Origin: Candidatus Woesearchaeota archaeon
GTDB lineage: Archaea; Nanobdellota; Nanobdellia; SCGC-AAA011-G17; GW2011-AR18
Reading direction: 5' to 3'
Assembly: GCA_018302235.1 (NCBI GenBank)
Contig: JAGVZW010000033.1
Coordinates: 434-64,433, forward strand
DNA length: 64,000 bases
The notes under the pieces were generated by a model. That model was not told the DNA's origin, did not search any database, and was given only the letters and a program-made list of their open reading frames with translations. Made by a program: the position numbers and the translations under genes. Below are positions 33,123-61,477 of this stretch, one piece after another. How positions within the stretch are numbered: the first letter of the stretch is position 1; each line of letters opens with the position of its first letter.

Positions 33123-33286
33123 AAATACTTATGAAAAGAACCGCTAATAAAAACATAGGTTTTAAATGTTCAAAAAAAAATAACTAATTCTAAAAAATTC
33201 CGAATTAAGAACAAATAAAAAGACTCGGTTATTATTATGAACTTATTAGATTCAATAGAAACAAACCATTATTTTAATTAAAAAAA

Positions 33287-33838: not shown

Positions 33839-33873
33839 TTTAAACCTCCAAATTACTCATATGAATTAAATTT

Positions 33874-34470: not shown

Positions 34471-34485
34471 ATATTAAAAAATAAT

Positions 34486-40347: not shown

Positions 40348-40474
40348 TCATAAAACCTCTTTTTCTTATTAACAACATTAAATAATCTTTAATATATAAA
40401 TATTTTTATTTTATAAAATTAAATTGTGGTATAGGGATAACAATCTTTAAAAATTATTAATACAAAAGAATAGA

Positions 40475-40888
40475 ATGGAAGATTGTATCTTTTGTAAAAT
40501 TATTAATAAAGAAATAAAAGCAGCAACTGTTTATGAAGATAAACATACATATGCCTTTTTAGATATTAGACCAGCTTCAGAAAAAGGAGGACATACATTA
40601 GTTATGCCTAAAAAACATTATGAATTAATCACTGACATCCCAGATGAAGAAATAAAACACTTATCTTTAACATTAAAAAAAATATCATCTGCATTACTTA
40701 AATTCAGTCAAGGACTTAATATCCTACAAAATAATAAAAAAATTGCTGGTCAGTATATTAAACATATTCACTTCCACCTAATTCCAAGATTTGAGAATGA
40801 TAATATTACAATAGAAAAATGGAAAGCAAACGAATATAAAAATGGAGAAATAGAAAAGATTCAAAATAAAATTAAATTATTATTCTAA
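40475..40888 (+). CDS. HIT-family (histidine triad) nucleotide hydrolase.
   Basis: HIHFHLIP is the HxHxHxx motif. 137 aa. Confidence 0.85.
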   Translation: MEDCIFCKIINKEIKAATVYEDKHTYAFLDIRPASEKGGHTLVMPKKHYELITDIPDEEIKHLSLTLKKISSALLKFSQGLNILQNNKKIAGQYIKHIHFHLIPRFENDNITIEKWKANEYKNGEIEKIQNKIKLLF

Positions 40889-41266
40889 ACATCTCCCATT
40901 TTCACAACCATTAGAGCACCAAATCACCGAATTCAAAACATCATTATTATAACAATAAAATTCTTTTAAATTATTATTATTAACACAAATATCTGATTCA
41001 CTTTGAGATTCACAGTCTTTCAAAGATTTCAAACAGGTTTCAGAGTAAGCATAAACTGTTCCCTTTTTATTTACATTATAATACTTTCTATCAAAATATT
41101 GTGATGGCTTATCAGTATCTATGCATCCCTTTTGTACACTAAATTCTATAGATTTTCCTGTAAAAATCTCCTGTGATAGATTTGGCTTAAACTTTAATAG
41201 TATAAAAAAAATAGCTACAATTATAATCAAAACTACTAAAGTTCCTGCAAACCCTCTTTTATTCAT
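40880..41266 (-). CDS. Small secreted/anchored Cys-rich protein, hypothetical.
   Basis: N-terminal TM/signal segment and 8 Cys in a 128-aa protein. Confidence 0.35.
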   Translation of the reverse strand: MNKRGFAGTLVVLIIIVAIFFILLKFKPNLSQEIFTGKSIEFSVQKGCIDTDKPSQYFDRKYYNVNKKGTVYAYSETCLKSLKDCESQSESDICVNNNNLKEFYCYNNDVLNSVIWCSNGCENGRCLE

Positions 41267-41302
41267 TAAAATAAGAATACATTGATACTTAAAAAAATTT
41301 CC

Positions 41303-41320
41303 GTTAAATTTAAGTATAAT
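41303..41320 (+). promoter_or_regulatory. Putative archaeal TATA box (with BRE) for tRNA-Met.
   Basis: AAGTATAATTA is centred about 26 nt upstream of tRNA position 1. Confidence 0.35.
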
Positions 41321-41340
41321 TATCTTTTCATTGAATCATT

Positions 41341-41452
41341 GCCTCACTAGCTCAGCCTGGTTAGAGCGCCACTCTCATATGTTTGAGAAATGAAGCATTA
41401 GCTAATGAACTAAGAAAGGTGGAGGTCGGGGGTTCAAATCCCCCATGAGGCA
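41341..41452 (+). tRNA. tRNA-Met (anticodon CAU) with a 37-nt intron at the canonical 37/38 position.
   Basis: Manual fold: acceptor GCCTCAC..ATGAGGC, D-arm GCTC/GAGC, anticodon stem CCACT/GGTGG with CTCATA followed by the intron (41380..41416), T-arm GGGGG TTCAAAT CCCCC. Confidence 0.7.
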
Positions 41453-41466
41453 AAGCTTTAAATAGA

Positions 41467-42075
41467 ATGATTATTTTGAAATATATAATGAAAGAAATAA
41501 TTATTATTTGTTTATTATTTATATCATCTTGTGTAACACCATCAGAGGATTTGAATCTAGTTCCACCTATAGCAGAACCCAAATCTGATTTTGTTTGCAA
41601 TGAACCATATATTCAAGTGGGTTCCGAATGTTGTCTAGATCAAAATAAAAATAAAATCTGCGATAGGGATGAAATAATAGAAGAAGAGAATAATATAGTT
41701 GAATGTAATTTAATAAATCCATTTACGTGTAGATACGCAAAAATCGAAGATAATAAAATTATAATAAGTTTAAAATTCTTAAACCCAGAAATAGCATTCA
41801 TAAAAACGATATCATTTCCATCATTAGATTGTACAGTACATTTCAATGCCCCTGAATCAGAATGGATTAAAGATCCTTTAACAGATTATTCATATATACT
41901 TCCATTAAAAGAAACAGAACTTGAGATTCCCTGTGAGATTACAGAGGATTATGTAAATACTGATTGGGAAATAAGCTACATAATATACGATGATGGTGTT
42001 CCATATAATGATGGATTAAGATATTTATATGATAAAGAAGATAAAACCTATGGAACATTATTAGCTGAGTTATAA
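41467..42075 (+). CDS. Secreted Cys-rich lipoprotein-like protein, hypothetical.
   Basis: MKEIIIICLLFISSCVTPSEDL is a lipobox-like signal. 10 Cys. Confidence 0.4.
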   Translation: MIILKYIMKEIIIICLLFISSCVTPSEDLNLVPPIAEPKSDFVCNEPYIQVGSECCLDQNKNKICDRDEIIEEENNIVECNLINPFTCRYAKIEDNKIIISLKFLNPEIAFIKTISFPSLDCTVHFNAPESEWIKDPLTDYSYILPLKETELEIPCEITEDYVNTDWEISYIIYDDGVPYNDGLRYLYDKEDKTYGTLLAEL

Positions 42076-42094
42076 AATAGCAAAAAAAGAATAA

Positions 42095-43522
42095 TTAGTT
42101 TAACATAGCTTTTTTAATAAATATATGAGCATTATACAACTTTTCACATTTTATTTCATAATCCTTTATGTCTATTTTTTTAGAAAATATTGGACAATTA
42201 ACTACTAAAGTCTCTGCTTCTCCACCTTCAAATGCAACATTTATCCCCTTAATTTTAACTAATTTATCAACATCCTTTTCAGTAATTATTCTACCCAACC
42301 AAGATTTATCCAAACCATCACAAGCTACCTTGGTTATAATAAATTCAAAACCATTTCTAATTACCTCTCTTATCTCTTTTTCCTGATCCATATGCCATAA
42401 TGGTGAAAATATCTTTAAACCTAAAGAATCACAAATCTCTTCAATTCTTTTTCTTTGATAATCACTAAAAAGACCGCCATGTACTACCCCATCTATATGA
42501 TATTTTTTTTTAGCTAATTTTAACACTATTTTTAAATCCTCTAATTCCTTTTCTTTTTCACCCCAAGTTTCTTGTATAATTAAAGGAATACCTAAAGAAT
42601 CTGCCTGTAATCTAACTAAATCTATAGTTGGTGTATGATACATAAAAGAATCTTTATTTTTACTTTTAATTGTAACTAAACATTCAATCTTATAATTTTG
42701 TTTCATCATTACATACATTGCATAAATACTGTCCTTGCCACCACTAACTAATGCACCTAATCTTAAATTATAAGAATAATATTTCTTTAAATAACCTGAA
42801 ATATCTCTTTTTCCTGATTTTTTTAATGCCTTATGAAAATTAGAACCATATTGGGCAGCCCTTTTCTTTCTATTATATATCTCTTTTTTTAAACCCAAAT
42901 CCTTTCCTATTTCTCTCAAAATTAATTTATTATTCTTCTCATTAATCTTATATTTTCCATCAATATTTAAAACAAATTCAATTAATTTCTTATCTAAAAA
43001 TGGTAGTCTTAATTCTAAATTATTATACATAGTTATTACATCATCTCTATATAAATCTCTCTCATACATCTTTAACAAACCACTTAAACATTCTTTATTT
43101 ATATCATTAGAATTTTTATGTCTTTCATAACCAGCAAATATCTCTTCAGAACCCAAACCAGAGAAAATTACCTTACAACCATCTTTTCTTGCTTGTTCAC
43201 ATGCTACAAAGAAAGGCAAAGCTACACCAACCTTAGTAACATTTGTATCTTCAATCAATGGAATTATCTTTTCTAAATATGGTTTAATATCTTTAATTTC
43301 TATTACTTTCAAATCTAAATTTAACTCTTTAGCTACTTTTTTAGCAAAAATTACATCTTCAGCTTCTTTAATATTTTCACTATAAAAACCAGAAACATAA
43401 CAAGTAAAATCAACATTAAATTCCTTTAAAATCACAGCTAAAATTGTAGAATCTATTCCACCAGAAAACAGTAAACCTAATTTCTTTTTAGGTATTCTTT
43501 TTTTTACAGCTTCAAACAACAA
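42095..43522 (-). CDS. Asparagine-synthetase-type PP-loop synthetase domain fused to a Dph6/MJ0570-like PP-loop ATPase domain.
   Basis: N-terminal LGLLFSGGIDST with GYERH...RDD...LELRLPFLD is the AsnB C-domain pattern. The C-terminal half has a second PP-loop, ALVSGGKDSIYAM, resembling diphthine-ammonia ligase (Dph6) type ATP-binding domains. The apparent start codon is TTG. Confidence 0.65.
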   Translation of the reverse strand: MLFEAVKKRIPKKKLGLLFSGGIDSTILAVILKEFNVDFTCYVSGFYSENIKEAEDVIFAKKVAKELNLDLKVIEIKDIKPYLEKIIPLIEDTNVTKVGVALPFFVACEQARKDGCKVIFSGLGSEEIFAGYERHKNSNDINKECLSGLLKMYERDLYRDDVITMYNNLELRLPFLDKKLIEFVLNIDGKYKINEKNNKLILREIGKDLGLKKEIYNRKKRAAQYGSNFHKALKKSGKRDISGYLKKYYSYNLRLGALVSGGKDSIYAMYVMMKQNYKIECLVTIKSKNKDSFMYHTPTIDLVRLQADSLGIPLIIQETWGEKEKELEDLKIVLKLAKKKYHIDGVVHGGLFSDYQRKRIEEICDSLGLKIFSPLWHMDQEKEIREVIRNGFEFIITKVACDGLDKSWLGRIITEKDVDKLVKIKGINVAFEGGEAETLVVNCPIFSKKIDIKDYEIKCEKLYNAHIFIKKAMLN

Positions 43523-43985
43523 TCTTTCTTGGGTTTAGCTCAATCATTTCTTTAAATACTTTTTTTTCTGAAGCAAACATAAATCCATCTTTATTTGTGT
43601 ACCATAAAGGTTTTATTCCTAAAATATCTCTTGCTAAAATTACCTTATCATCTTTAATTAAAGCAAAGGCATAAGATCCATCTAATTCATCTAAATCTAA
43701 TCCTTTATCTACAAAATAAAATAATAGTTCAGCATCATTTTTAGCCTTGAGATTATATTTTCTATTCAATTCTTCCCAATTATAAATCTCACAATTAGCA
43801 ACAAACCTATTCTTTATTGGCTGTTCAACAAAACCCACAATTGAATGAAGTAAATGGCCTATTGAATAGTTTATATTAGAATAAACTTTTTTCCCATCTA
43901 AACCTCTATATTTTATTATTTCTAAACCCTTTTCAACTAATTCTTTATGATTTTTTCTATTGAATACTCCAATTATTCCACACAT
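43512..43985 (-). CDS. Class II (Ntn) glutamine amidotransferase domain of asparagine synthetase.
   Basis: MCGIIGVF has the N-terminal catalytic Cys. RGLDG, NCEIYN, GSYAFAL, ARDILGIKPLWY and FMFASEKK match the AsnB GATase domain. It overlaps the next ORF by 11 nt in another frame. Confidence 0.7.
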   Translation of the reverse strand: MCGIIGVFNRKNHKELVEKGLEIIKYRGLDGKKVYSNINYSIGHLLHSIVGFVEQPIKNRFVANCEIYNWEELNRKYNLKAKNDAELLFYFVDKGLDLDELDGSYAFALIKDDKVILARDILGIKPLWYTNKDGFMFASEKKVFKEMIELNPRKIVV

Positions 43986-44168
43986 AAGAAATTAATGAAT
44001 AAAAACCATTAAAAAAGTAACTTTTCTTATTAGGCAATACTTAAAATGGTAGAGCAAAAAGTATTTGCTCTTCATTAAACATATATTTTAAGGGTCAAAT
44101 ATTAATTTAAAACTATTTTTTCTAAAACCATCACAACTTTTATATATTTTATTAAAATGGTTTTTTAA

Positions 44169-45905
44169 ATGAAAACAAAATATAGAACCCATACTTGTGG
44201 GCAATTAAATAAAAATGATTTAAATAAAGAAGTTACATTAGCTGGATGGGTTCAAGCTAGAAGAGATCACGGTGGATTAATTTTCATAGATTTAAGGGAT
44301 AGATATGGTTCAACACAAATAGTTTTTAATCCTGATTTTAATGATTTTAAATTAGCAGAATCTCTAAGAAGAGAATATTGTATCCAAATAAAAGGCAAAG
44401 TAAAATTAAGACCTAAAGGCATGATTAATAATAATCTCTCTACTGGGGATATAGAGGTTGAGGTAAATGAAGTAAATCTATTAAATAAATCAGAAGTTCC
44501 ACCATTTGAGATTGATGAAAGGATAGAAATTAATGAAGATTTAAGATTAAAATACAGATATTTAGATTTAAGAAGAAAAAATATGTTAAAAAACCTAGAG
44601 TTAAGGTATAGAATGACTCAAATTGTAAGAAATTTTTTAGATAAACATAATTTTATTGACGTTGAAACCCCTTGTTTAACTAAATCAACCCCAGAAGGTG
44701 CAAGAGATTATCTTGTTCCATCAAGAGTTAATCCAAAACAATTTTATGCTTTACCACAATCACCCCAATTATTCAAACAAATTTTAATGATCTCAGGTTA
44801 TGACAGATATTATCAAATTGTTAGGTGTTTTAGAGATGAGGATCTAAGAGCTGATAGACAGCCAGAATTTACTCAGATAGATATTGAAATGGCCTTTATT
44901 GAAGAAGAAGATATTCAAAATATTGTTGAAGGTATAATGAAGGAATTATTTAAAGAATTCAAAAATAAAGACTTAAAATTACCATTAAAAAGAATAAGTT
45001 TTCATCAAGCAATAGAAACCTATGGTTCTGATAAACCAGATTTAAGATTCAATTTAGAATTAATTGACGTTGATGAGATAGTAAAAAAAAGTGATTTCAA
45101 TATATTTAAAACATCAGAATTAGTTAAGGCAATTAGTTTAGAAAAAGAAATTTCTAGAAAAGATTTAGATGAAATAACTGGCTGGGCCATGAGAAATGGT
45201 GCCAGAGGCTTAGCATGGATTAAAGTTAATGATGGAAAATATGATGGAGCTGTTGTAAAATATTTTAAAGAAAAAGAGTTAAAAGAATTAACAAAAAAAT
45301 TAAATGTTAAAAATGGAGTAATATTTTTTGTTGCAGATAAAAGAAAAACCGTTAATGAAGTTTTAGGAAGATTGAGAAATTATTTAGCTGAAAAATATAA
45401 ATTAATTGATGAAAATAAAGATGAATTATTTTGGGTAGTTGATTTTCCATTATTTGAGTATTCAGAGGATGAACAAAGATGGGTTTCAGTACATCATCCA
45501 TTTACTCAACCACATCCAGATCAAGTTAAAAAGATGACTACTGACCCGGGAAATGTTAGATCTAGGGGTTATGACTTAGTTTGGAATGGTAATGAGATAG
45601 CTGGTGGTTCAATAAGAATCCATGGACAAGAAATGCAATCAGATGTGTTTAAGTCATTAGGGATATCAGAAGAAGAGGCTAAAATCAAATTTAGTTTTTT
45701 ATTAGATGCCTTAAAATTTGGCGCACCACCACATGGAGGAATAGCTTTTGGTTTAGATAGATTAACTATGCTATTTGCTAAAACTAATTCAATAAGAGAT
45801 GTTATTGCTTTTCCTAAGAATAAAGATGCAGTTTGTTTAATGACAAATGCTCCTTCTCCAGTAACAGATTCTCAATTGAAAGAATTACATATTAAATTAA
45901 GATAA
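44169..45905 (+). CDS. aspS: Aspartyl-tRNA synthetase, bacterial type (with GAD insertion domain).
   Basis: THTCGQLNKNDLNKEVTLAGWVQARRDHGGLIFIDLRDRYG is a bacterial AspRS N-terminus. 578 aa, class II motifs, C-terminal GGIAFGLDRL. Confidence 0.9.
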   Translation: MKTKYRTHTCGQLNKNDLNKEVTLAGWVQARRDHGGLIFIDLRDRYGSTQIVFNPDFNDFKLAESLRREYCIQIKGKVKLRPKGMINNNLSTGDIEVEVNEVNLLNKSEVPPFEIDERIEINEDLRLKYRYLDLRRKNMLKNLELRYRMTQIVRNFLDKHNFIDVETPCLTKSTPEGARDYLVPSRVNPKQFYALPQSPQLFKQILMISGYDRYYQIVRCFRDEDLRADRQPEFTQIDIEMAFIEEEDIQNIVEGIMKELFKEFKNKDLKLPLKRISFHQAIETYGSDKPDLRFNLELIDVDEIVKKSDFNIFKTSELVKAISLEKEISRKDLDEITGWAMRNGARGLAWIKVNDGKYDGAVVKYFKEKELKELTKKLNVKNGVIFFVADKRKTVNEVLGRLRNYLAEKYKLIDENKDELFWVVDFPLFEYSEDEQRWVSVHHPFTQPHPDQVKKMTTDPGNVRSRGYDLVWNGNEIAGGSIRIHGQEMQSDVFKSLGISEEEAKIKFSFLLDALKFGAPPHGGIAFGLDRLTMLFAKTNSIRDVIAFPKNKDAVCLMTNAPSPVTDSQLKELHIKLR

Positions 45906-45966
45906 AATATTTACAAAGACTAACTGAATATATAATTCCTAAAATCCCAGTAAAACTCAAAATGTA

Positions 45967-47172
45967 TTAAATAAAATATAAAAATAAATTAGCAATTAAA
46001 TGCGCTAATATTGGATAAAAAATACTTCCTTTTCTAGCTAAATAGCCCATAAACAAAGAAAATATAAATAGAGCAATAAAATAAAGAATTACAAATAAAT
46101 AATCATTATAATATGAAAAAATTGTTTTTAAAAATAAAAAATGGATCGAAGCAAACAATAATGATTGTAATATTTGTGCTTTTTTAAAAGAAAATGATTT
46201 TTCACTTAATTTTAAAAGAATTAATCTAAACATATTTTCTTCTGTGATTGCAATAAATATTGGAGCAAATATGAAACTAAAATTTATGGGTTCTTTAATA
46301 ATATAAAATACATAACCAAGACAAAAGCCAAATAACAAAGATAGTAATATATTTTTTAAATTAAAAATAAAATTAAATTCTAATTTAAAAAACCTAACTA
46401 GATATATCGAAATTATTGTTAATAAAATTAGAATTATTTGATCTATAAAAGGAATATATTTTTCTAACAAAAAACCAATAAAACCAAAAAATAAATATAA
46501 GAATATTATTGCATTAATAGCTAAAATAAAATCATCTCTATATTCCTTTAAACCTATTAATTCCCTATAAAATACAAAATTAAAGATTAAACTTACTATT
46601 AAAAATGAAAAGAGAATAATTATTGAATTATTAATTAGATTTATAATTCCTATAGCTAATAATACAACACTAAACCCATATATTATAATTAATTTATTAT
46701 TTAATAAATCTTTTAAAATATTTCTGGCTAAATATCTACAACTAAAATAAGTGAAGATAAAAAAACCACCTAAATAAAATAAGATATCTAATAAAAATAA
46801 AAAAATAAGTAAAAAAACCATAATATAATCATTACTTTCTATAAAAAATAGAATTCCATTAAAATAATAATTTACAATAGAATAAATATAATTCCAGAGA
46901 AATATTCCTAAAAATACAAGGCTTCCTAAAAACAAAGAACTTATTAAAATATCCCTAAATTTTCTAATTAGTAAAAGAAAAACAAATATTAAAATAAGAA
47001 TAACAAATAATGTTTCAAAATTAAAGAAACTTACGGATGACAATTTATACGTTAAGAAATCAACACCAATTATACCTCCTGAAGATATAATCGCCTTTTG
47101 ATTCACCCACGGAACAAACAAAAAACAGAGAATAGATATAACTATGCAGCAGATTAAAATGTATCTTTTCAA
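45967..47172 (-). CDS. CPBP-family (CAAX protease/Abi) intramembrane metalloprotease with a long N-terminal membrane extension.
   Basis: TEENMFRLILL (EExxxR), LFASIHF (FxxxH) and ILAHLIANLF (HxxxN). Confidence 0.6.
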   Translation of the reverse strand: MKRYILICCIVISILCFLFVPWVNQKAIISSGGIIGVDFLTYKLSSVSFFNFETLFVILILIFVFLLLIRKFRDILISSLFLGSLVFLGIFLWNYIYSIVNYYFNGILFFIESNDYIMVFLLIFLFLLDILFYLGGFFIFTYFSCRYLARNILKDLLNNKLIIIYGFSVVLLAIGIINLINNSIIILFSFLIVSLIFNFVFYRELIGLKEYRDDFILAINAIIFLYLFFGFIGFLLEKYIPFIDQIILILLTIISIYLVRFFKLEFNFIFNLKNILLSLLFGFCLGYVFYIIKEPINFSFIFAPIFIAITEENMFRLILLKLSEKSFSFKKAQILQSLLFASIHFLFLKTIFSYYNDYLFVILYFIALFIFSLFMGYLARKGSIFYPILAHLIANLFLYFI

Positions 47173-47302
47173 ACCATTTATAAAATCCCCTATTTTAACA
47201 TCAAAAACAACAAAACAGCAAAATAGAATAGGAATAATTAATAAAAATAAAACACCTAATCCACTTAAGATGTAAATAATTGTGGTTAAAATATTAATTG
47301 AT

Positions 47303-47941
47303 TCAGATTGAAAATGTTCTATTAAGCTTAAATGTAAGTTTTCTACCGAGAATATTTAATATCTTAATTTTCTCACTCTTTAAGTCTTTAATAGCATAAA
47401 TTAGCGCCACAATAAATAAAGATTTGTCTAAAGATACCATGAACCATTGATTAACTAAACCAAACAAATATTGTGAAAATGCAAATAAAATTATAAAGAT
47501 TGAAAAAAACCTTAACCATAAGTTATTCTTTAAATAATTAGTTTTCTTAATTAAATTTGTTACTGCATAAACAACAGATAATTCTTTAATATTATTTTTT
47601 TTAGAGAAATAAAATGCTATTATTATTAGTATACTAGTACCTAATATCAAAGAAATATAACTAATTAATGTAGAATATATAGAAATATCTTTTTCTATAA
47701 AAGGAAGAAAGGTATCAATAACTAAAATATAAAATCCAAATAGAATTAACCAGTCTAATTTTTTATTCTTCGTACCTATGATAAAATTTGTTGGACTTAA
47801 CCTTAACCAAAAACAAAATAATAAAATTGCTGTTAATAATTTATCAATAATATTAAATGAACCTGGTAAAAGATTAAAAAAATCAAGAAAACCAAGGCAC
47901 AAAAGAAACAATTTAAAAATAATATCTAAATATTTATTCAT
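47303..47941 (-). CDS. Polytopic membrane protein, hypothetical.
   Basis: 212 aa with 6 or more hydrophobic segments. Confidence 0.35.
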   Translation of the reverse strand: MNKYLDIIFKLFLLCLGFLDFFNLLPGSFNIIDKLLTAILLFCFWLRLSPTNFIIGTKNKKLDWLILFGFYILVIDTFLPFIEKDISIYSTLISYISLILGTSILIIIAFYFSKKNNIKELSVVYAVTNLIKKTNYLKNNLWLRFFSIFIILFAFSQYLFGLVNQWFMVSLDKSLFIVALIYAIKDLKSEKIKILNILGRKLTFKLNRTFSI

Positions 47942-47971
47942 ATTTTTAAAAAATACTAAAAAATTAAAAAA

Positions 47972-48762
47972 CTATTGTTTCTTTGTAAATATAATAATTG
48001 CAATTATACCTAATATTATAATAAATACAAAGATTATTGTTGTTAATGAAAACCCCCAAATAACAGTATGAGATGATACCCCTGCTATTGAATTCGAATT
48101 TGCTATTGGTTTATCAGAAAATGTACTTGTTGAAACAACCTCTCCTGCTTCAAGATTATTAAAATTATATTTTATAACGGGATCATTTTCAATTATTTCA
48201 GTATTATCTGGCAAAACTAATTCTGATGCATCTGCTACATCTTCTTTTGGAATCTCAATTATTATATCTAAATCACCATCTTCAGGCATGACATATGTTT
48301 CTTTTAATTCATAAAATTCTTTACTTTCTCCATTTTTATTAATACCTACATGTGTAATTAACTCTTTTTTTTCTGCATTAACTGGTCTTTCTTTTTCTAA
48401 ATTAAAAATTGCTGTTTCTAAACCTTTATTTGGTTTTTCTTGAAGTTTTTTAGTTAAAATAATTAAAGCTCTATCCCTTCCTTTGTCCTCTAATTTTTCT
48501 TCTTTTAATACAAAAGTTTCTGCATCTTCATCAATAAATTTTTTAGCAGCTTTTTTTTCATCTTTATCATCCTTGTCTTCTACTTCATCTTTATCATCCT
48601 TGTCTTCTACTTCATCTTTATCATCCTTGTCTTCTACTTCATCTTTATCATCCTTTTGTCTTCCTTGTCATCTTCAGATTCATTTGAACCAGCAAAGACT
48701 AAAGAAAAAAAACTAATTAAAAAAAATACTATAATAACACTAGAGATTATTTTTTTATACAT
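47972..48762 (-). pseudogene. Acidic-repeat, C-terminally anchored secreted protein gene disrupted by frameshifts.
   Basis: ATG at 48762 encodes a signal peptide MYKKIISSVIIVFFLISFFL and then stops. A second frame encodes SLVFAGSNESEDDKEDK. A third frame (48667..47972) carries four DDKDEVEDK repeats, then ...MPEDGD... and a C-terminal TM helix. The shifts lie at a T7 run and inside the 27-nt repeat array. Confidence 0.4.
48558..48675. repeat. 27-nt tandem repeat, about 4 copies, with the last copy degenerate.
   Basis: Unit tcatctttatcatccttgtcttctact. On the coding strand this encodes DDKDEVEDK. Confidence 0.8.
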
Positions 48763-48887
48763 ATATATATTAAGAGAAACCCATATATAAATATATAAGC
48801 AATGATTATATGTATTTAGTTTTTTATAAAAGAACTATCAATATGTCATAAATATGTAAAGAAATATTTAAATAGCTTCTTTTTTTC

Positions 48888-49013
48888 AAGAACTTAAGCG
48901 AGGGTGCCGGAGTGGCCAAACGGGGTAGAATTATATTGTCTTAAAACACTATAATACCCATACTCAAGTTTGAAAAATAATCATTGAGTCATCTACTGGC
49001 TTAGTGCCTACGC
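48888..49013 (+). tRNA. Class-II-type (Leu/Ser-like) tRNA 5' portion with a long anticodon-loop intron. The 3' T-stem and acceptor strand were not found.
   Basis: GCGAGGG acceptor 5' strand, CCG/CGG D-stem with loop GAGTGGCCAAA, anticodon stem GTAGA...TCTAC separated by about 62 nt, a long variable arm GGCTTAGTGCC, and GCAGG TTCGAAT. No CCTGC or CCCTCGC complement follows. Confidence 0.35.
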
Positions 49014-49256
49014 AGGTTCGAATTTCTTAAAAAATACAATTCATTTTTATAAACCTCATAAGTCATTAAAGCAGAAAAAATTAGAGATAAAACTGCTAAA
49101 GAAATATAAAGGTGTTTATGATATCTTATTCTTCTTGGATCTTTTATATCCTTATAAATTGTTGTAGCTAATCCAAGACACTCCTCTTCTAGTTCTTTTT
49201 TTAATTCATGCATAATTATCAAAAAATTAGGTTATTAAAATAGTTTACGCTTAGAA

Positions 49257-50748
49257 TTCACTGGTGTATTAAGTGGGCTTTTTTAAGAATAAAATATATG
49301 AAATATATGGAATATGGTAAAGTTTATATAGTTCTTATATTGCATATATTTATGCAAATAAGATATAATCCATTTAATCCTCAACAACCAGCAAAACCTC
49401 ATTTTTTTGTTGGAAGAGAACAGGAAGTAAAATGTTTTGAAAATTTTTTAGGTCAAACTATTTACAATTCTCCTATGAATATGACCATTACAGGAGATAG
49501 AGGAATGGGTAAAACATCAATATTAAATAAATTTGAAGAGATAGCAGATAATCAAAGAGCCTTAGTAGTTAATGTTTCTAATTATGAGGGTAATGTAAAA
49601 GATGTAATTGAACTATCTGAATTCCTAATTACAAATATTCAAAGAGAAATAATAAGTCGTAATCCTATTTCAAAAAAAATTAATGAATTTGGAAAATGGG
49701 TTAGTTCATTTAAAGCAAGAATAGAAGTAAAAGGAATTACAATAGCTTTAGAAAAGAAACAAATAGTTGAATATATTTTAAGAGAAAAATTAGAAGAAAT
49801 ATGGAAAAATGTTAAAGAAATGTATACATCTATTGTAATTTTAATTGATGAAGCCGAAAGTTTAGAAAATATGGATGGTTTAACTTTTTTAAGAGAAGTT
49901 TTTCAAAAAGTACAATCAAATTCAAATTATATGATTGTTTTAGCAGGAAAATTTAACTTTCCTGAAAAAATGTCAGAACAATTTTCTCCTTTAAATCGCT
50001 TTTTTCCTGCAGAAAGATTAAGAAGATTAACTGAAAAAGATGTTTCAAATTATTTAGAAAATAGATTAAATGATACTGAGGTTAATATTGACAAAGAAGC
50101 CATATATAATTTATTTAAAAAATCAGAAGGACATCCGTATGTTTTAGTTTGTATTGGTTTTTTAGTTTTCGATTCTTTAAAAACTAATGAAATGGCTATT
50201 AATTCAGATGTTGTAGAAAGAAGTATTTGGAAAATTAGAGGGAAATTATCTCAAGATTTTTTTACTCCTATGTTTTATCCTTTATCACCACAAGCAAAAA
50301 GAATAATATGTAAAATCGCTAAAGAAATTAAAGGTTTAAAATTTACAATGAATGAAGCTACTTTAATAACTAATATGCCTAATAATCAACTTTCTGGTTA
50401 TTTTGGAGAATTTTTAAAAAGAGGAATACTTACAAAACCAAGTAGAGGTGTATATTGGATATTTCATACACAATTTAAAGAATATTTAATACATAATTCG
50501 GATAAATTTAATTAGATTCTTTTTCAATAATAATCTTTCCTTTTTCAAATACAATCTTTAATTCTTTGTCTATTAACCCACTCTCTTCTATTATTCTTTT
50601 AGGAAGATTAATTCTATATCTAAAATACTTATTATTATTAATCTCTTTGTCAAATGCTTTTAAAATTTTCATAAATGGTTTAGATATCAGAAGTTTTTAA
50701 AGTGTTCCGGTTTCCGAATTATTTAAGCCCACTTAATGCACCAGTGAA
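49257..50748. mobile_element. Putative transposon-like insertion: 24-bp terminal inverted repeats flanked by an 8-bp direct repeat (GCTTAGAA), carrying one ATPase gene.
   Basis: Left end TTCACTGGTGTATTAAGTGGGCTT (49257..49280). Right end AAGCCCACTTAATGCACCAGTGAA (50725..50748), its reverse complement with 1 mismatch. GCTTAGAA lies immediately outside both ends (49249..49256 and 50749..50756). Confidence 0.5.
49298..50515 (+). CDS. AAA+ ATPase of the archaeal ATPase (Arch_ATPase/ORC-like) family.
   Basis: FFVGREQEV...MTITGDRGMGKTSIL is Walker A and ILIDEAESL is Walker B, with a C-terminal wH-like region. Confidence 0.6.
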   Translation: MKYMEYGKVYIVLILHIFMQIRYNPFNPQQPAKPHFFVGREQEVKCFENFLGQTIYNSPMNMTITGDRGMGKTSILNKFEEIADNQRALVVNVSNYEGNVKDVIELSEFLITNIQREIISRNPISKKINEFGKWVSSFKARIEVKGITIALEKKQIVEYILREKLEEIWKNVKEMYTSIVILIDEAESLENMDGLTFLREVFQKVQSNSNYMIVLAGKFNFPEKMSEQFSPLNRFFPAERLRRLTEKDVSNYLENRLNDTEVNIDKEAIYNLFKKSEGHPYVLVCIGFLVFDSLKTNEMAINSDVVERSIWKIRGKLSQDFFTPMFYPLSPQAKRIICKIAKEIKGLKFTMNEATLITNMPNNQLSGYFGEFLKRGILTKPSRGVYWIFHTQFKEYLIHNSDKFN

Positions 50749-50789
50749 GCTTAGAAATATTTAAATCTCTTTTTAATTTATATTTTGTA

Positions 50790-51440
50790 ATGAAATCATT
50801 ATACTGTAATGGAAAATATTATTTATGGAAAGAAGGAGATCTGCACACTAAAGACGGATTTCTAAAAGAAGCAGACATAAAGAATAAAACATCCGCAGAA
50901 TCAAATATAGAAAAAAAATTTTATATATTCGAGCCATCTTTTAATGATTTATTAAAAAAAATACATAGAGGACCACAAATACCCCTACAAAAAGATATTT
51001 TACAGTTATTAAATTATATTAATAAAGATTCTATTGTCTTAGAAGCAGGCACTGGTTGCGGCTGTGTAGCTTTAAACCTAGCTAGATTTGTAAAAAAAGT
51101 AATAACCTATGAAAGAAATAAAGAATACATTAAAATAGCCAAAAAAAATTTTAATTTATTCAATATAAACAACATTGAAGTAATAAATAAAGATATTTTT
51201 GAAGGGATAGAAGAAAAAAACATAGATATGATTTTTTTTGATTTAGAAGAACCATATAAACTACTAAATGAGGCAAATAAATCATTAAAACAGGGAGGAT
51301 ATCTAATTATCTACTTACCAAATATTCCACAAATACAAGATGTAATTAGAGAGAATAATAATTTTATTCATGAAAAAACTATTGAAATTTTAGAGATGAT
51401 TGGTCATACTGGATTTTTAAATATATTTAGAAAAATATAG
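50790..51440 (+). CDS. Class I SAM-dependent methyltransferase, TrmI (tRNA m1A MTase)-like.
   Basis: VLEAGTGCGCVALNLARFVKKVITYERNKEYIKIAKKNF resembles the TrmI/GCD14 SAM-binding block. Confidence 0.5.
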   Translation: MKSLYCNGKYYLWKEGDLHTKDGFLKEADIKNKTSAESNIEKKFYIFEPSFNDLLKKIHRGPQIPLQKDILQLLNYINKDSIVLEAGTGCGCVALNLARFVKKVITYERNKEYIKIAKKNFNLFNINNIEVINKDIFEGIEEKNIDMIFFDLEEPYKLLNEANKSLKQGGYLIIYLPNIPQIQDVIRENNNFIHEKTIEILEMIGHTGFLNIFRKI

Positions 51441-51488
51441 TTTTTAAAGATAAAAAAGATTTATATTTTAGTTCTGTGTTGAAAAGAT

Positions 51489-52607
51489 ATGGAAAAGAAA
51501 TATTCCTCCCATCACGATACTAAAAAATATGCATGGGATTTTGCAAGAGAAAGATTTGGAAGTAAAGATGATGAAATTACTAAAGTAGAAACGTTAAGTT
51601 TATCTAGAAAAGATGAGAGTAAAAAAGATTCTGGTATTTTGAATGTTAAAACTAAAGATCAATTAAGTCAAGTGCATGAGAGTAATATTAAAGAAGAACC
51701 TCATATTTTAAAACCTTGGTATAAATTAATAGAACGGCTTACATATAGAAAAAAGAATAACGAGCTTACAAAAATTGATGAAAATTCTTTTAAAAGAATT
51801 GTAAAGATTGGATCAGTATTTATTGAAATCAATGACCGTACTGCTTATAACAGAGCTTTATATGAAAGAGGAAATAATTTTGGACTAGAAGAGCGTTTTT
51901 TGAAAAAACATTTTAAAGGTATTAGTTTTGCTGCTGCAACTACTGCTTTAACTATAGGAGTATTTACATTATATAATAGATTTAAATCTTCAATTGACGA
52001 TCATTTTCAAGTAAAAACCCCTATTAGCTATCAAATTAAAGAGCTTGAAGATGATTTAGAGGGAATCGTTGAAGATTATAAACCCAGAGAAATTGAAGTT
52101 GTTGAAACTAAACCAATTAAAGTTGTTGAAACTAAACCAATTAAAGTTGTTGAAACTAAACCAATTAAAGTTGTTGAAACTAAACCAATTAAAGTTGTTG
52201 AAACTAAACCCAGAGAAGAGATTAGAAAAAATGGGATGTATAGTGTTGATTTTTCAAGAACAAGTTTTAGAAATGGAAGAATAATAAGCACTACTGAATC
52301 TAATAAAATAATGCGGTTTTCAGAATATCATGGAACTCCTTATAAAGGGGAGGGCGATGAATTAAAATTGCGGATAAATAAAGATGGAACATCTTATCAA
52401 ATAAGATCTGAAACGAAAAAAGCTAGGAACTATTTTGTTATATGTTATGATACAAATGGTAATTTTATTGGGACTAAAAATGGAAATATTTCTAATGAGG
52501 ATGTAGTTCAAATACCTAAGGAAACAAGATATACTGATACTATGCTATTAAATGAAAAAGGAATAAGTATTGCATCACATATCAGTTACCAAAATATTGT
52601 TTTATAA
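51489..52607 (+). CDS. Hypothetical protein with a single TM segment and a VETKPIKV tandem-repeat region.
   Basis: 372 aa with a TM helix at GISFAAATTALTIGVFTLY. Four to five in-frame VVETKPIK repeats are encoded by a 24-nt tandem array. Confidence 0.45.
   Translation: MEKKYSSHHDTKKYAWDFARERFGSKDDEITKVETLSLSRKDESKKDSGILNVKTKDQLSQVHESNIKEEPHILKPWYKLIERLTYRKKNNELTKIDENSFKRIVKIGSVFIEINDRTAYNRALYERGNNFGLEERFLKKHFKGISFAAATTALTIGVFTLYNRFKSSIDDHFQVKTPISYQIKELEDDLEGIVEDYKPREIEVVETKPIKVVETKPIKVVETKPIKVVETKPIKVVETKPREEIRKNGMYSVDFSRTSFRNGRIISTTESNKIMRFSEYHGTPYKGEGDELKLRINKDGTSYQIRSETKKARNYFVICYDTNGNFIGTKNGNISNEDVVQIPKETRYTDTMLLNEKGISIASHISYQNIVL
52098..52211. repeat. 24-nt perfect tandem repeat (4.75 copies) flanked by aaacccagagaa.
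   Basis: Unit gttgttgaaactaaaccaattaaa, in frame within the 51489..52607 CDS. Confidence 0.85.
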
Positions 52608-52794
52608 TTCGTGTAAGAAGAAAATTTTCTAAAAAACATGTTAAATCTTATGAGCTTCTACAATTAAAATACTTCCTTCGAATTTTGATATAGTTATTTT
52701 TACTGAAAATTAATTATTAAGTTTAACTATTGTGTTTATAAATGAATATTTATTATTCACAAAATTTAAATATAAAAAATTTAGTAACTAAAGA

Positions 52795-53346
52795 ATGAAA
52801 AGATTAATACTGTTATTTATATTAATGTTAATGATAGCAAGTTGTAGTATTCAAAAAAATGATGGTTTTATAAAAATAAAAAATGTACTCTTAGAGGAAA
52901 AAAATAATACAACTAATATTATTGAAGAAAAAGAAACTAAACCAAAAGTAGTTACAACTGAAGATCTAAACAGTGAAGATGAAGAAGAGGATAATAATGA
53001 TGAAGATGATAACGAAGAAGAAGAAACTAAATTAACAACAGATAAAAACGAAATTACTGTAAAAACACCAGATGGAGATTTAAAAATTGTTATGAACAAT
53101 GCAAATGAATGGTGTATAGGAGGGTCAATCTGGGATTATACAGTACCCAGTTCAAAAGGAACAAGCTATGTAAAGGGAAAAGTAACTGGCATAATCACTG
53201 ATAACAATGAATTAAATGGTCTATGTGAGATATTCTATAGTATAAAGAATCCAGATGGAACTACATCAGAAATATACAATTATTTTAATAAAAGCAATGA
53301 TATCCTATATGCTAAAGATTTGAATGGAACACTTTATAAAAAATGA
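52795..53346 (+). CDS. Secreted lipoprotein-like protein with an acidic (D/E-rich) region, hypothetical.
   Basis: MKRLILLFILMLMIASCS is a lipobox-like signal. It has a poly-acidic stretch EDEEEDNNDEDDNEEEE and two Cys in the C-terminal domain. Confidence 0.4.
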   Translation: MKRLILLFILMLMIASCSIQKNDGFIKIKNVLLEEKNNTTNIIEEKETKPKVVTTEDLNSEDEEEDNNDEDDNEEEETKLTTDKNEITVKTPDGDLKIVMNNANEWCIGGSIWDYTVPSSKGTSYVKGKVTGIITDNNELNGLCEIFYSIKNPDGTTSEIYNYFNKSNDILYAKDLNGTLYKK

Positions 53347-53720
53347 TTAACCTTATTTTTTTCTTTTAAATTAGCAAAGGTTGCTCCCACATCAATTATA
53401 TATTTGCCTTCATCTAACATATAGACTATAGGCTCCTTTTTAAATAATTTAGCTATATCCAATTCAAATTTACCTGATTTTGTAATATTGATTGAAGCCA
53501 AATCTAACACTATAAGCTTATCATCTGAATTAATCCCTAATATATCCAATACATCTTTTTCTATATTCTCCTTTTCTTCTAAAGAAAGATTATGAATATT
53601 CTTTTCAGTTTTAGACTTGATAAAAAAAAAGAATTTTCCACCACAACCATTACATCCCTTAAGTATTTCATCTGAACCATCTTCAAATATTCTGTCGCAT
53701 TTTACACATTGATGTGGCAT
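53334..53720 (-). CDS. Zinc-ribbon protein conserved in archaea, hypothetical.
   Basis: N-terminal CVKC..x13..CNGCG Cys4 ribbon. Last gene of the GTPase operon. May correspond to the DUF2072-type Zn-ribbon family, recalled from memory and uncertain. Confidence 0.4.
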   Translation of the reverse strand: MPHQCVKCDRIFEDGSDEILKGCNGCGGKFFFFIKSKTEKNIHNLSLEEKENIEKDVLDILGINSDDKLIVLDLASINITKSGKFELDIAKLFKKEPIVYMLDEGKYIIDVGATFANLKEKNKVNHFL

Positions 53721-53722
53721 AT

Positions 53723-54118
53723 TTAATACTTCCTTTTTCTTCTATCTAATGTTAGAAGTTCAATTTTAAATGGATCTTTTTTTATTTCTTTAACTATTGT
53801 AGCTGGTCCAACAATAGTTAAACCATTTGATCTACCCAATAAAAAATTAGCAATTTTTAATCTGATCCTCTCAAATAATTCCTGATTTTGTTTAATGTTA
53901 TCAATACTGCATATCTCGATCCCCTTAAATTTTTTATCTATTTCCTCCATTGTTTTAGTTATTAATTCTGCCTCTTCATTAGGATCTAATTTTCCCTCTA
54001 TTAAAATTATCTTATCCTCTTTTACACTCCTTAAAATCTTTTTTAATTTTTCTTCTGTATTCAAATTTCCAAGTTCATGATATGGGATATATTGTAACGT
54101 TAACAATTTTTTGTTCAC
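53723..54118 (-). CDS. Conserved archaeal hypothetical protein, possibly DUF2073-like.
   Basis: 131 aa, overlaps the upstream GTPase stop by 4 nt and lies 3 nt upstream of the Zn-ribbon gene. Confidence 0.35.
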   Translation of the reverse strand: MNKKLLTLQYIPYHELGNLNTEEKLKKILRSVKEDKIILIEGKLDPNEEAELITKTMEEIDKKFKGIEICSIDNIKQNQELFERIRLKIANFLLGRSNGLTIVGPATIVKEIKKDPFKIELLTLDRRKRKY

Positions 54119-56136
54119 CTCTTTTTCACCATTTCAAATACCTTATCATAAAATTCCTCCATGTTTAAGCCCTTTTCAGCTGATATGCCTATAACAGAAT
54201 ATTGAGGAAATGCATCTTCTATTTTTTTTACATCAGATTTCTTTAAATCTGTTTTATTAGCTACAATTAAAACTGGAATATCCCTTGCAGCTAAATTACC
54301 TATAATTGTTATATTTACTTGATTATATGGATTTCTAGTTGAATCTAATACAATTAAAACACAATCCATATCATCCAACCATTTTATTGCATCTATAATC
54401 CCCTTTGTAGCCTCTTTCGCCCTTTCTTTTGCTTCATCTATCTTCATTTTAAATTTAAGAAAATCCTCATAATCAATCTTTGTAGCGATTCCTGGTGTAT
54501 CAACTAGATTAAAACTTAATTCCTTTCCCTTTGAATTAATAGTGATTTTTTCCTTCATATTTATTTCCCTTGTTTCATGTGGAATAGAAGATACTGTTCC
54601 CATATCTTCCCCTAACCAATCCTGACATATTCTATTTGCAATGCTAGTATTATGAGCGATCAGGCCATTAGAAATAATAAAGGTATGTGTATCTTCAATT
54701 GTTAAATCATAAATATAATCATTATATTCTTCTTGAGTTATTTCTTTAATTTCATCCCACAAGTTATCTGAATTAGTTAAAGTCTTTATAATTTTATTAT
54801 TTAATACTCTAGACATTTTCTCTAATCTATGATATGATATTCTATTATCTCTGTACATTCTAGCAATATGTTTATTATCTAAATAAAATTCTTCTTCTTT
54901 TAATTTCTCTTGTTTTCTTATATTTTCCAATAAACCCATAATAGGCAAATAAAACTTATTTCTTTTTAAACAACATTTGGATAGTTTATCTAATCTTTCA
55001 GCTTTATATTTTATTCTAAAACCAATTTTTTCTTTAAACAATCTGTGATTATCACTTCCAAATATAAATAAACTCCAGTAGGCTTGACCATTAATTAATT
55101 TTGATCTAAATCTCCCTACAATCCCAAATCTATTTAAAAGTAATTGAACTTGTTCTACCAAAATTTTACTTTTGGTACTATATTCAATCTGATTGCTAGA
55201 ATTTTTAGTTAATTTAGAAACATAACCCCCCATATCAAATAAAATTTGTAATAATTTTGCTGTTAAATTATCAGGTAAACCCATAAATTGTGAAGGAATT
55301 TGTTTATTACCTGAAAGAGATGGTTTGAAATTTAAACTTTTTTCTAAAAAATCAGTTAATGTTCTTGAATTTAATTCTCTTTCAGGCACACCATTATTTA
55401 TTCTTTTAATGGCTTCTAAATTGAATAATTTTTTTGTTAAATAATCAAAATGATTTAATGCGTATTCGTCTGAATTACTAAATTTAATCACGCTTTTTGT
55501 ATAATATGCTTCTGTAATTAGATAACCTATAAAACTAACTAAATCTTCATCTATGTAAGAAGGTATAATTATCTCTTTTTGATTATGAAATTTAGATATT
55601 ATTTGTATCATATTGCCATTAACGTTGAAACAATTTTCAGTAATTAATTTGGGTAACATAATGTTTGTTGCTAAGGATAACTTTTTTGCAATAGCAATAG
55701 ATTCATTAGCCTTTAAACCTCCAGTTCTTATATTCTCTACGCCATTATTTGAAAGCCTGATTAATGGATGTTCTGGTGTAACTCTTATTTGTCTACCCGC
55801 TTTAGTTAAAATATTATATATTTTTCCTTTATATTTTTGAGCATAAACAAAACTCACTCGTTTTGGAATTATTTTTAAGGTTTGTGTATTAAAACTTGGT
55901 ATGATTAAATTTTTAGATCTTACATCAATATATATTTCATTAAATGAATTATTATGGTTTACGCTATCAAATATTTCTTTTATTGTTTTAATTTCTCCAT
56001 TCATTAATACAATTTTAGTTTCTGGTGTAACACATTTTCCGCTGTTCGGTGGCCCATAAAGTCCTAATTTTATATTCTTCTTTTTATTAAAAATTGACCT
56101 TAAATTAAAAAAGAAAACCTTAAGCTTACGAATCAT
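54115..56136 (-). CDS. Small Ras/Era-like GTPase interrupted by an intein in the P-loop. The mature extein is about 211 aa.
   Basis: Extein motifs are GLYGPPNSGK|...|TSI (G1, split), DTPG (G3), NKTD (G4) and SAEK (G5). The intervening 462 aa begin with Cys and end with HN, followed by Thr. Confidence 0.65.
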   Translation of the reverse strand: MIRKLKVFFFNLRSIFNKKKNIKLGLYGPPNSGKCVTPETKIVLMNGEIKTIKEIFDSVNHNNSFNEIYIDVRSKNLIIPSFNTQTLKIIPKRVSFVYAQKYKGKIYNILTKAGRQIRVTPEHPLIRLSNNGVENIRTGGLKANESIAIAKKLSLATNIMLPKLITENCFNVNGNMIQIISKFHNQKEIIIPSYIDEDLVSFIGYLITEAYYTKSVIKFSNSDEYALNHFDYLTKKLFNLEAIKRINNGVPERELNSRTLTDFLEKSLNFKPSLSGNKQIPSQFMGLPDNLTAKLLQILFDMGGYVSKLTKNSSNQIEYSTKSKILVEQVQLLLNRFGIVGRFRSKLINGQAYWSLFIFGSDNHRLFKEKIGFRIKYKAERLDKLSKCCLKRNKFYLPIMGLLENIRKQEKLKEEEFYLDNKHIARMYRDNRISYHRLEKMSRVLNNKIIKTLTNSDNLWDEIKEITQEEYNDYIYDLTIEDTHTFIISNGLIAHNTSIANRICQDWLGEDMGTVSSIPHETREINMKEKITINSKGKELSFNLVDTPGIATKIDYEDFLKFKMKIDEAKERAKEATKGIIDAIKWLDDMDCVLIVLDSTRNPYNQVNITIIGNLAARDIPVLIVANKTDLKKSDVKKIEDAFPQYSVIGISAEKGLNMEEFYDKVFEMVKKR
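54649..56034 (-). other. Intein (about 462 aa) with a LAGLIDADG-type homing endonuclease domain, inserted after the P-loop Lys.
   Basis: Block A is CVTPETKIVLMNGE directly after GPPNSGK. The C-terminal block is THTFIISNGLIAHN, with Thr as the +1 residue. Internal LAGLIDADG-like motifs are LVSFIGYLITEAYY and LLQILFDMGGYVS. Confidence 0.6.
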
Positions 56137-56180
56137 AATATTAAAGATAGCAGATTGTTTAAAAATATTTTGGTTAAAAT

Positions 56181-56732
56181 TTATAGACCAACAAATAAAT
56201 TATATTTCTCGTTACCATCTAATTCTAAAAGTATTCTTTTCACAATAATCTTCTCTGGATCTGGAATAGATGTTACCCTCTGTTTTAGATCAAAAAAGCT
56301 TTCAAATCTCTTCTCCTTTCTAGCATCCAAAATCTCCAACATATGTTTCTTTCCAATACCAGGTAATAATTCTAAATAATGTCTTCTCATATTTATTGGA
56401 CCAGCCTGATTAAAAAAATCCAAGAATTTACTAGAATTTTTTTCTATTAAATCCTTTAATACAAATTCAAGTTCATTTCTCGCTGTCTGAGTCAACTTAG
56501 ACAAAGGAACCTTTCCAACTATATGATGGATTTGATCCCTTTTTCCATCCCCAATATAAACCTTTTGATACGGCTGCAAAAAAACATCTTCCTTTGGCAC
56601 TAATTCTAAAAGAACAAGATAAGTTTCACCTATAGCTTGAGCTATAGGATTTCTTTTGTGCAGTGGTTTGTTTTCGTAGGGGTATCCATGTTTTAAAAAA
56701 TCCAATATTACTGCATATTCTTCCTTGCCCAT
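56181..56732 (-). CDS. DUF655/COG1491-like nucleic-acid-binding protein (OB fold plus helix-hairpin-helix).
   Basis: C-terminal HhH-like LLPGIGKKHMLEILDAR. Conserved archaeal position next to rpoF and rpl21e. Confidence 0.4.
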   Translation of the reverse strand: MGKEEYAVILDFLKHGYPYENKPLHKRNPIAQAIGETYLVLLELVPKEDVFLQPYQKVYIGDGKRDQIHHIVGKVPLSKLTQTARNELEFVLKDLIEKNSSKFLDFFNQAGPINMRRHYLELLPGIGKKHMLEILDARKEKRFESFFDLKQRVTSIPDPEKIIVKRILLELDGNEKYNLFVGL

Positions 56733-56743
56733 TTTTTTCTCCC

Positions 56744-57085
56744 TTAAACATATTTTTTCACTACTTCTTCTATTTTACTCAAATCTTCTTGTTTTAATGT
56801 AATATTGTCCCCACTAAAAAGAGATTTTATGCTCTCCTGTGTAGTTGGCATTATATCTATTATCTTAATTAAATTCTTTTCCTTTATTCTAATTAAATTC
56901 AATTCACCTAATTCTTTCTTTAATTGTTCAGCATCCTTCTTTTTTATTTTTATATTCTCATTTAACTGATCCAATACCTTTACTGATCTAAAATTTAATT
57001 CTTTTTTTTGTTTTTTAAAACCCTCTAATCTTTCTTTTATATCAATTAGAGATAAAGGAACCTCCTTTAATATTTCAATATCCAT
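56744..57085 (-). CDS. rpoF: RNA polymerase subunit Rpo4/F (Rpb4 homolog).
   Basis: 113 aa helical protein (..IKIIDIMPTTQESIKSLF..LKQEDLSKIEEVV..) overlapping the rpl21e 3' end, which is the conserved archaeal L21e-RpoF synteny. Confidence 0.55.
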   Translation of the reverse strand: MDIEILKEVPLSLIDIKERLEGFKKQKKELNFRSVKVLDQLNENIKIKKKDAEQLKKELGELNLIRIKEKNLIKIIDIMPTTQESIKSLFSGDNITLKQEDLSKIEEVVKKYV

Positions 57086-57377
57086 TTTTTATCCTCCTTA
57101 AATGTATTGGATGCACAATCATAAGTTTTTTCAAATTACCATCAATTAGCTCAATTTCATAGCATTTGCCTCTTTTTTTTAATACTGTTCCAGATTTTCC
57201 ATGAAACCTTGGATGATACATTCCCTTTTGAATCCCTGGATCAGCTAAAAAATACACCATTTCTCCAGGATTTAATATTTTATAATATTCTATAATACTA
57301 ATCTTTCCCCTTTTTCTCTTTCCCTTTGATAATTTATATCGAGTATTCTTCCTTAAACCGCCAATCTTAGTTCCCAT
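57075..57377 (-). CDS. rpl21e: 50S ribosomal protein L21e.
   Basis: SKGKRKRGKISI...DPGIQKGMYHPRFHGKSGTV is an L21e signature (QKGMPH..YHGKTG). Confidence 0.8.
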   Translation of the reverse strand: MGTKIGGLRKNTRYKLSKGKRKRGKISIIEYYKILNPGEMVYFLADPGIQKGMYHPRFHGKSGTVLKKRGKCYEIELIDGNLKKLMIVHPIHLRRIKNGY

Positions 57378-57433
57378 TCACTTTTCTAAGCAAAATAGAA
57401 TATATAAATCTTTCTGCAGTCCAAAAAATAATT

Positions 57434-58117: not shown

Positions 58118-58281
58118 GATATAAAAAATATGTAAGAATTAATAAATTTAATTCTCATATAAAAAAACATATTTTTATTCAATAAACAATTCTGAATAAT
58201 TACTAATTCTGAGAAAATAAAACATACTTAATTACTATTAAATGACAAAAGTTTTAAATAGTTTTTTATTAGATTAAGAGA

Positions 58282-58881: not shown

Positions 58882-58906
58882 TTTTTATTCTTCAAACCAC
58901 ACCTTA

Positions 58907-61060: not shown

Positions 61061-61477
61061 AGTTTTAAAAATAAAAACTATAATATAAATTTAATCTTAT
61101 TTTAGAGCGTATTTAACCGAAAAATAACATTAATATGTTTTTTTCTAGACTTAAGAACAAAGTTAGAAGAAATAAAAATACTTGAAATTTTAAATGAATG
61201 GAAAAAAAAAATAATATTAAGTTTATTCCATTATGGAAATGGTTATTGTTAAATGAATAAATTTTATTTACAAGAATCAACTAAAAGCATTATTTCAATA
61301 AGATATTTTTCCATATAAAAAAAATATTAGGAAATTACACATCGTCAAATAAAAGAAAATATATATTAACAATAATAGAGATATTATATCACAAAATAAT
61401 TACAATACTAAGATAATAGATAGCTTACTGAAATCAAAGAATTATATTTAGGTCCAGTCAAAAATAATTCTATAAAA

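Follow-up and report, generated by a model that had tools for sequence, protein, structure and literature searches.

The minus-strand locus at 48762..47972 of the 64,000-nt stretch of DNA analyzed here (the window) raises the question of whether an archaeal surface protein gene is really broken by frameshifts and, if so, by what kind of event. A preliminary description of the locus placed the signal peptide, the acidic N-terminal segment and the repeat body with its membrane anchor in three different frames, with shifts at a T7 run and at a degenerate repeat copy, and proposed a phase-variable contingency locus, a decaying pseudogene or a mis-assembled low-complexity region. From comparison with other assemblies, we consider it probable, at roughly 0.88, that a local assembly error in the deposited MAG (Candidatus Woesearchaeota, J4436_03750) caused the break. 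The gene is most likely normal and intact in the organism itself, a groundwater DPANN archaeon of the Rifle aquifer.

One Gene in Two Reading Frames

The segment 48762..47972 (minus strand) corresponds to one real gene, which comprises a signal peptide, a 27-nt acidic repeat, a helical and beta-sandwich ectodomain and a C-terminal transmembrane (TM) anchor. In the window it is divided between two frames only, with the signal peptide and the acidic start (SNESEDDKEDK) sharing one of them (48762..48634). According to the ORF list and its translation, this 5′ fragment (48634..48762, minus strand) contains the signal peptide and acidic start (MYKK...VFAGSNESEDDKEDK) followed by six out-of-frame codons and a TAG codon; in frame 1 it translates to MYKKIISSVIIVFFLISFFSLVFAGSNESEDDKEDK, next RMIKMK and the stop. 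In frame, it is identical to the first 36 residues of both intact proteins, P0001 and L005. The proposed signal peptide was recovered as a signal-peptide-like N-terminus, MYKKIISSVIIVFFLISFFSLVFA followed by GS, with a KK n-region, a 17-residue hydrophobic core and a VFA/GS boundary. The homopolymer to which one shift had been assigned is a T8 and not a T7 run (48705..48712, minus strand); it lies within the signal peptide and, as judged from the translation and the comparison with relatives, reads ISFFSL in frame, exactly as in the intact genes.

The second frame holds an open stretch of 231 codons and a stop (47972..48667, minus strand), with no start codon before 48289, and this earliest start yields a 105-aa fragment. 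The translation of the whole stretch runs through (Q)KDDKDEVEDK three times, DDKDEKK, a body of 195 residues, a hydrophobic C-terminus and KKQ. TRF confirmed the DDKDEVEDK repeat as a perfect 27-nt tandem array at 48557..48655 (minus strand; 3.7 copies, 100% matches), with the unit GAAGACAAGGATGATAAAGATGAAGTA encoding EDKDDKDEV. On the same strand and in the same open stretch, 48383..48559 is helical and 48068..48382 forms a beta-sandwich, followed by the expected hydrophobic TM anchor (47984..48061) and a KKQ tail. In an AF2 model (pLDDT 65, three-sequence alignment), the body folds as two helices and a 7-8-strand beta-sandwich.

The intact gene encodes a type-I membrane protein with a cleavable signal peptide, an acidic 9-aa tandem-repeat spacer (net charge of about -21 in a 6-copy allele), an ectodomain and a TM anchor. 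As a working guess, the intact protein may be a membrane-anchored extracellular binding domain carried on a charged stalk of variable length.

Intact Alleles in Other Assemblies

A protein search with the body yielded two clusters, P0001 (307 aa, 100% identical across the body) and P0002 (302 aa, 92%), in both of which signal peptide, repeats and body are encoded in a single frame, and further contigs were gathered through neighbor-gene look-ups. At the DNA level, the relatives' contigs were 99% (JGI Rifle, C687J...) and 89% (ENA) identical to the window. One of them, the 25.7-kb Rifle-aquifer contig L005 (JGI 3300002104), carries an intact 280-aa allele and shows 0-2 mismatches to the window over 45592..54470, with none over 47343..49023; its array copies are I, I, V, V, V and a terminal copy. 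The comparison with relatives, which the preliminary description had suggested as a check, thus found every recovered relative to be single-frame and the lesion to be present in the window only.

Complete alleles of 253, 280, 298, 307, 352 and 370 aa follow the series 253 + 9n and are all in frame; the sister lineage adds two in-frame proteins, one of 268 aa and one of 302 aa. All eight distinct complete alleles (8/8) and all five partial ones (5/5) are in frame, the copy in the window being the sole OFF copy. Two of the alleles were each recovered twice independently, namely those of 307 aa (L001, L002) and 280 aa (L005, L022). Array copy number in the other alleles ranges from 3 to 16, the exact counts being uncertain because they come from short-read assemblies, and the array seems to vary in length, in frame, among populations.

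Between the two lineages the body has a dN/dS of 0.135, which indicates a real gene under purifying selection; the pieces are parts of this one gene and not, as had been allowed for, unrelated chance ORFs. A scan of genome contigs retrieved the sister-lineage representative SMAG_U8091 only, whose 268-aa gene is intact. Neither the reconstructed protein nor its distant homologues matched a Pfam or NCBIfam family above cut-off, and a Foldseek search of the PDB with the AF2 model (pLDDT 65) gave generic beta-sandwich matches only, none below E = 1e-3. An exhaustive phmmer search identified eight relatives among 1.84 billion representatives, none of them named; these share an IPK...DPV(I/V)K(W/Y)xFxN...G motif, mostly with a C-terminal TM segment, and include multi-domain surface proteins. 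The gene beneath the lesion is an ordinary one, restricted to its lineage and coding for an archaeal surface protein with repeats.

A Blunt 52-nt Loss at the Start of the Array

In intact relatives the array starts with GAAGACAAGGATGAT, which we found at 12 same-lineage loci (L001, L002, L005-L007, L009, L010, L014, L022 and L030-L032), whereas the window has GAAGACAA joined to AAGGATGAT (48647..48663, minus strand; junction 48655/48656), the sequence across the junction being GAAGACAAAAGGATGAT. Compared with L005, 52 nt of array, or two copies minus 2 nt, are absent from the window with a blunt join, and both ATA-type copies are missing except for 2 nt. We also considered the lesion as an insertion of AA and rejected this, because the comparison with L005 shows a 52-nt loss. 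A single blunt, out-of-register loss of this size accounts for both the apparent contraction of the array and the change of frame. The preliminary description had located a shift in a degenerate, partially duplicated repeat copy around 48650..48670; a frame break is indeed present there, but its attribution to slippage or a change in repeat units does not hold. Slipped-strand or homologous events between 27-nt copies would be in register, so that a blunt out-of-register join is not a product of repeat slippage.

Assembler Failure at the Array

The lesion is absent from every other recovered assembly and database allele, including independent assemblies of the same population, in which the 12 loci carry the normal junction. 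A search for the window-specific junction gave 0 matches in metagenome contigs, a weak negative since the normal-junction control matched one contig only and the lineage is thinly covered.

The array is a site of demonstrable assembler failure. In other Rifle samples, three sibling IDBA-UD scaffolds (L030-L032; ANAN16-1 scaffold_1672, _44312 and _8918) carry a 100-N gap inside it, and gene callers give the same 105-aa fragment on all three; the array also holds six contig or scaffold ends, with five megahit contigs ending and scaffold_81 starting there. No Ns are present at the lesion site in the deposited record. The window keeps 99 nt of array, and base 100 is the first to distinguish the terminal from an internal copy, so that the junction falls at the expected end of a k = 100 contig. 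Because arrays with at least four V-type copies exist, a k = 100 de Bruijn contig entering from the unique side must stop at this point. Rifle DPANN genomes were assembled by IDBA-UD with -maxk 100 (PMC8204110), and local errors, including wrong repeat numbers in coding genes, are prominent in IDBA-UD MAG assemblies (Chen et al. 2020, PMC7111523).

We propose that a short-read de Bruijn assembler failed to traverse the repeat array and that the deposited contig connects the flanks directly, with neither the missing sequence nor Ns between them; such a join would have dropped the 52 nt and shifted the frame. The software step responsible may have been either the removal of Ns from a scaffold or an incorrect local join made by IDBA-UD. 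Three observations speak against an assembly error: the k-mer argument gives no reason for the left flank to end just 8 nt inside the array; the 367-nt piece from one junction to the next (48656..49022) falls below the 500-nt minimum contig quoted for Rifle assemblies; and the apparent variation in array length between populations is compatible with a rare real out-of-register deletion.

Six Further Private Deletions in the Same Contig

We compared window positions 3905..64000 with independent contigs and found a further six blunt deletions private to it, 45-173 nt long and with microhomology of 0-3 nt, together with 0 private insertions and about 8 SNPs in 60 kb. The missing segments are present in every other assembly. 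A deletion of 146 nt at 7107 truncates ProRS (5930..7123) from 515 to 397 aa, and one of 95 nt at 43520 splits the gene for a 661-aa asparagine-synthase/diphthine-ammonia-ligase fusion (42095..43985) into parts of 475 and 157 aa. The adjacent Rce1-like gene is split by the loss of 173 nt at 47343, giving 212 and 401 aa in place of 715 aa, a tRNA loses its 3′ end with 69 nt at 49023, and TrmI (50790..51440) is shortened in frame from 231 to 216 aa by the removal of 45 nt at 51393. The remaining deletion, of 89 nt at 61161, is intergenic. The six avoid neither coding sequence nor frameshifts, and they strike genes that a reduced genome could hardly lose; ProRS, the tRNA and TrmI are among the indispensable genes affected by these unsupported joins.

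A cluster look-up and NCBI nr placed the 216-aa TrmI, the 212-aa Rce1-like and the 475-aa ligase products on one public contig only (64,784 nt; J4436_037xx, MBS3159872-MBS3159881), and the 212-aa, 42-aa and 216-aa window products had no exact entry in the contig index. Archaeal BHB introns in coding genes were considered for the 45-173-nt segments and rejected, as every relative has these segments as in-frame coding sequence and the frame shifts when they are removed.

Alternative Explanations for the Broken Gene

It appears unlikely to us that the population sampled by this MAG has a true strain-specific null allele or a young pseudogene, in which a genuine 52-nt array deletion was accompanied by loss of the neighboring Rce1-like gene. 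This explanation would fit the damage to both of two adjacent genes that are probably co-transcribed, as well as a recombination-prone array of variable length and a record that has no Ns at the site. Against this, the body is 100% identical to intact alleles and gives no sign of decay, and the join is blunt and out of register. We found neither a reproducible lesion nor further degeneration: the lesion is private to one contig, and outside it the gene matches intact L005 at 100%, which contradicts the idea of a decaying pseudogene. The similar deletions in ProRS, a tRNA and TrmI in the same record would be hard for a reduced genome to tolerate, seven deletions to about eight SNPs is an unnatural ratio, and in sibling scaffolds N gaps lie exactly at the site. 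A related reading, which we regard as quite improbable, takes the array to be a true hypervariable in-frame VNTR (3 to 16 copies in co-occurring Rifle populations) in which rare out-of-register recombination yields real null alleles, that of the window among them. If this were true, the VNTR would set the length of a charged stalk by which an episymbiotic DPANN archaeon holds a beta-sandwich binding domain at its surface, and a host-contact protein would show population-level length and ON/OFF variation.

Phase variation, with slippage in the T run or the array toggling a surface protein, finds some encouragement in the surface exposure of the protein and in the spread of copy number between populations, but it is very improbable. 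A 27-nt unit means that changes in copy number preserve the frame, which all eight distinct complete alleles indeed keep, the T8 run does not vary and reads in frame in every assembly, and the change of frame is not a change in tract length. The locus has no hypermutable frame-shifting tract, and its relatives do not divide into ON and OFF tract lengths. Simple-sequence contingency loci are exemplified by the Neisseria opa CTCTT repeats, the Haemophilus tetranucleotide repeats and homopolymer switches. They resemble the present locus in that a surface protein gene contains repeats and a homopolymer, and differ from it in that here the length of the unit is divisible by three, the homopolymer does not vary and no ON/OFF series is seen in relatives. 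Recovery of the full-length protein at GAC AAA AGG, by programmed -1 ribosomal frameshifting or by transcriptional slippage, is scarcely credible. A -1 shift anywhere in 48667-48637 would fuse both frames; the site (C AAA AGG), however, is not an X XXY YYZ slippery heptamer, its A4 is too short for transcriptional slippage, and the two-frame arrangement is not conserved, the relatives all being single-frame. Among the explanations in the preliminary description, mis-assembly of a low-complexity region is the one supported, by a blunt 52-nt loss where sibling scaffolds carry an N gap and by six more private blunt deletions. The frameshifted, possibly phase-variable gene as originally described is not a real feature.

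Neighboring Genes and Other Features of the Window

Downstream of the repeat gene, after a 30-nt spacer, lies a gene (45967..47941, minus strand) whose product is a polytopic membrane protein carrying a CPBP/Rce1-like protease domain at its C-terminus (PF02517, E = 3e-12). In relatives this protein has 715 aa, with a long extra N-terminal polytopic region that has no family match. The repeat gene is found 30 nt upstream of the Rce1-like gene in both lineages, and this conserved spacing and pairing suggests that the two are probably co-transcribed; a functional link of the repeat protein to the Rce1-like protease is speculation. Between the Rce1-like gene and AspRS, L001 has about 830 nt (3336..4166; approximately window 45920..45968), compared with about 50-60 nt in the window and in L005; no gene was called in this L001 segment, which could be an insertion or a strain-variable segment.

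Upstream of the repeat gene and on the opposite strand is an intron-containing tRNA gene (48898..49023, plus strand), called by ARAGORN in intron mode. The private 69-nt deletion at 49023 takes the 3′ half of its T-arm, the acceptor and 56 nt beyond. In L005 the gene is intact (3532..3670): a 55-nt intron at 37/38 interrupts the sequence for a mature tRNA of 84 nt that has the anticodon UAU and a long variable arm, an odd combination of class-II shape and Ile anticodon. Default ARAGORN and Rfam left this tRNA uncalled, even in its intact L005 copy, and ARAGORN intron mode alone called it. Several contigs of other assemblies start or end near the 3′ end of this tRNA gene. Elsewhere, a 112-nt tRNA match (41341..41452, plus strand; Rfam, 48 bits) that was uncalled by ARAGORN presumably also contains an intron.

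A second in-frame tandem array (52091..52210; 24 nt x 5, within a 72-nt higher-order unit) lies in the ORF 51489..52607 (plus strand), whose 372-aa protein has no family match and measures 348, 364 or 372 aa across assemblies; sibling scaffolds have 100-N gaps at this array. On the minus strand, 54115..56136 encodes a 673-aa GTPase (MMR_HSR1) with an intein bearing a LAGLIDADG endonuclease domain, after which come OapB/OapC-family genes (53334..54118). A 1953-aa ORF (34486..40347, minus strand), with no Pfam match on record and a G+C content of 0.35-0.37 compared with about 0.27 for the window, is identical across many Rifle assemblies. The window also encodes a bacterial-type AspRS with a GAD domain and a second class-IIb synthetase of 487 aa (44169..45905 and 31325..32788, both plus strand). 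Toward its end, an AbiEii-family nucleotidyltransferase (247 aa) and an overlapping 232-aa partner (61478..62916, minus strand) form a toxin-antitoxin-like arrangement, and a HEPN/nucleotidyltransferase pair is found in relatives just past the window end.

Comparison with Known Systems and Implications

Surface proteins whose repeats vary in size while remaining in frame include Mycoplasma Vsa/Vlp, the staphylococcal SD-repeat proteins and streptococcal alpha C. The intact gene described here shares with them a signal peptide, an in-frame, copy-variable repeat spacer, a folded domain and a membrane anchor. It differs in that it is archaeal (DPANN), with a lysine/aspartate/glutamate-rich repeat and no sequence homology to these proteins, and in that its anchor is a C-terminal TM helix and not lipid or LPXTG; its copy numbers, taken from short-read assemblies, are uncertain. 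By analogy with these bacterial proteins, in-frame variation in copy number would be unremarkable.

The lesion itself resembles the errors described by Chen, Anantharaman, Shaiber, Eren and Banfield (Genome Res 2020, PMC7111523). As in their cases, a repeat-containing coding gene in a short-read, IDBA-UD-type assembly has a consensus supported by no other assembly, with a wrong repeat number, broken protein calls in public databases and several errors per scaffold. Unlike theirs, the present error was inferred from comparison with about 20 other assemblies and not by read mapping, and the joins are without Ns where sibling scaffolds keep them.

On this reading, the deposited MAG contig would contain at least seven silent joins without Ns, which would have produced false pseudogenes and truncated proteins. 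The false products now in NCBI nr would include J4436_03745, J4436_03750, the 216-aa TrmI and the 475-aa diphthine-ammonia ligase. Scans of DPANN genomes for pseudogenes, phase variation or gene loss would be misled by such joins, and we suggest that they be interpreted with this caution in mind.
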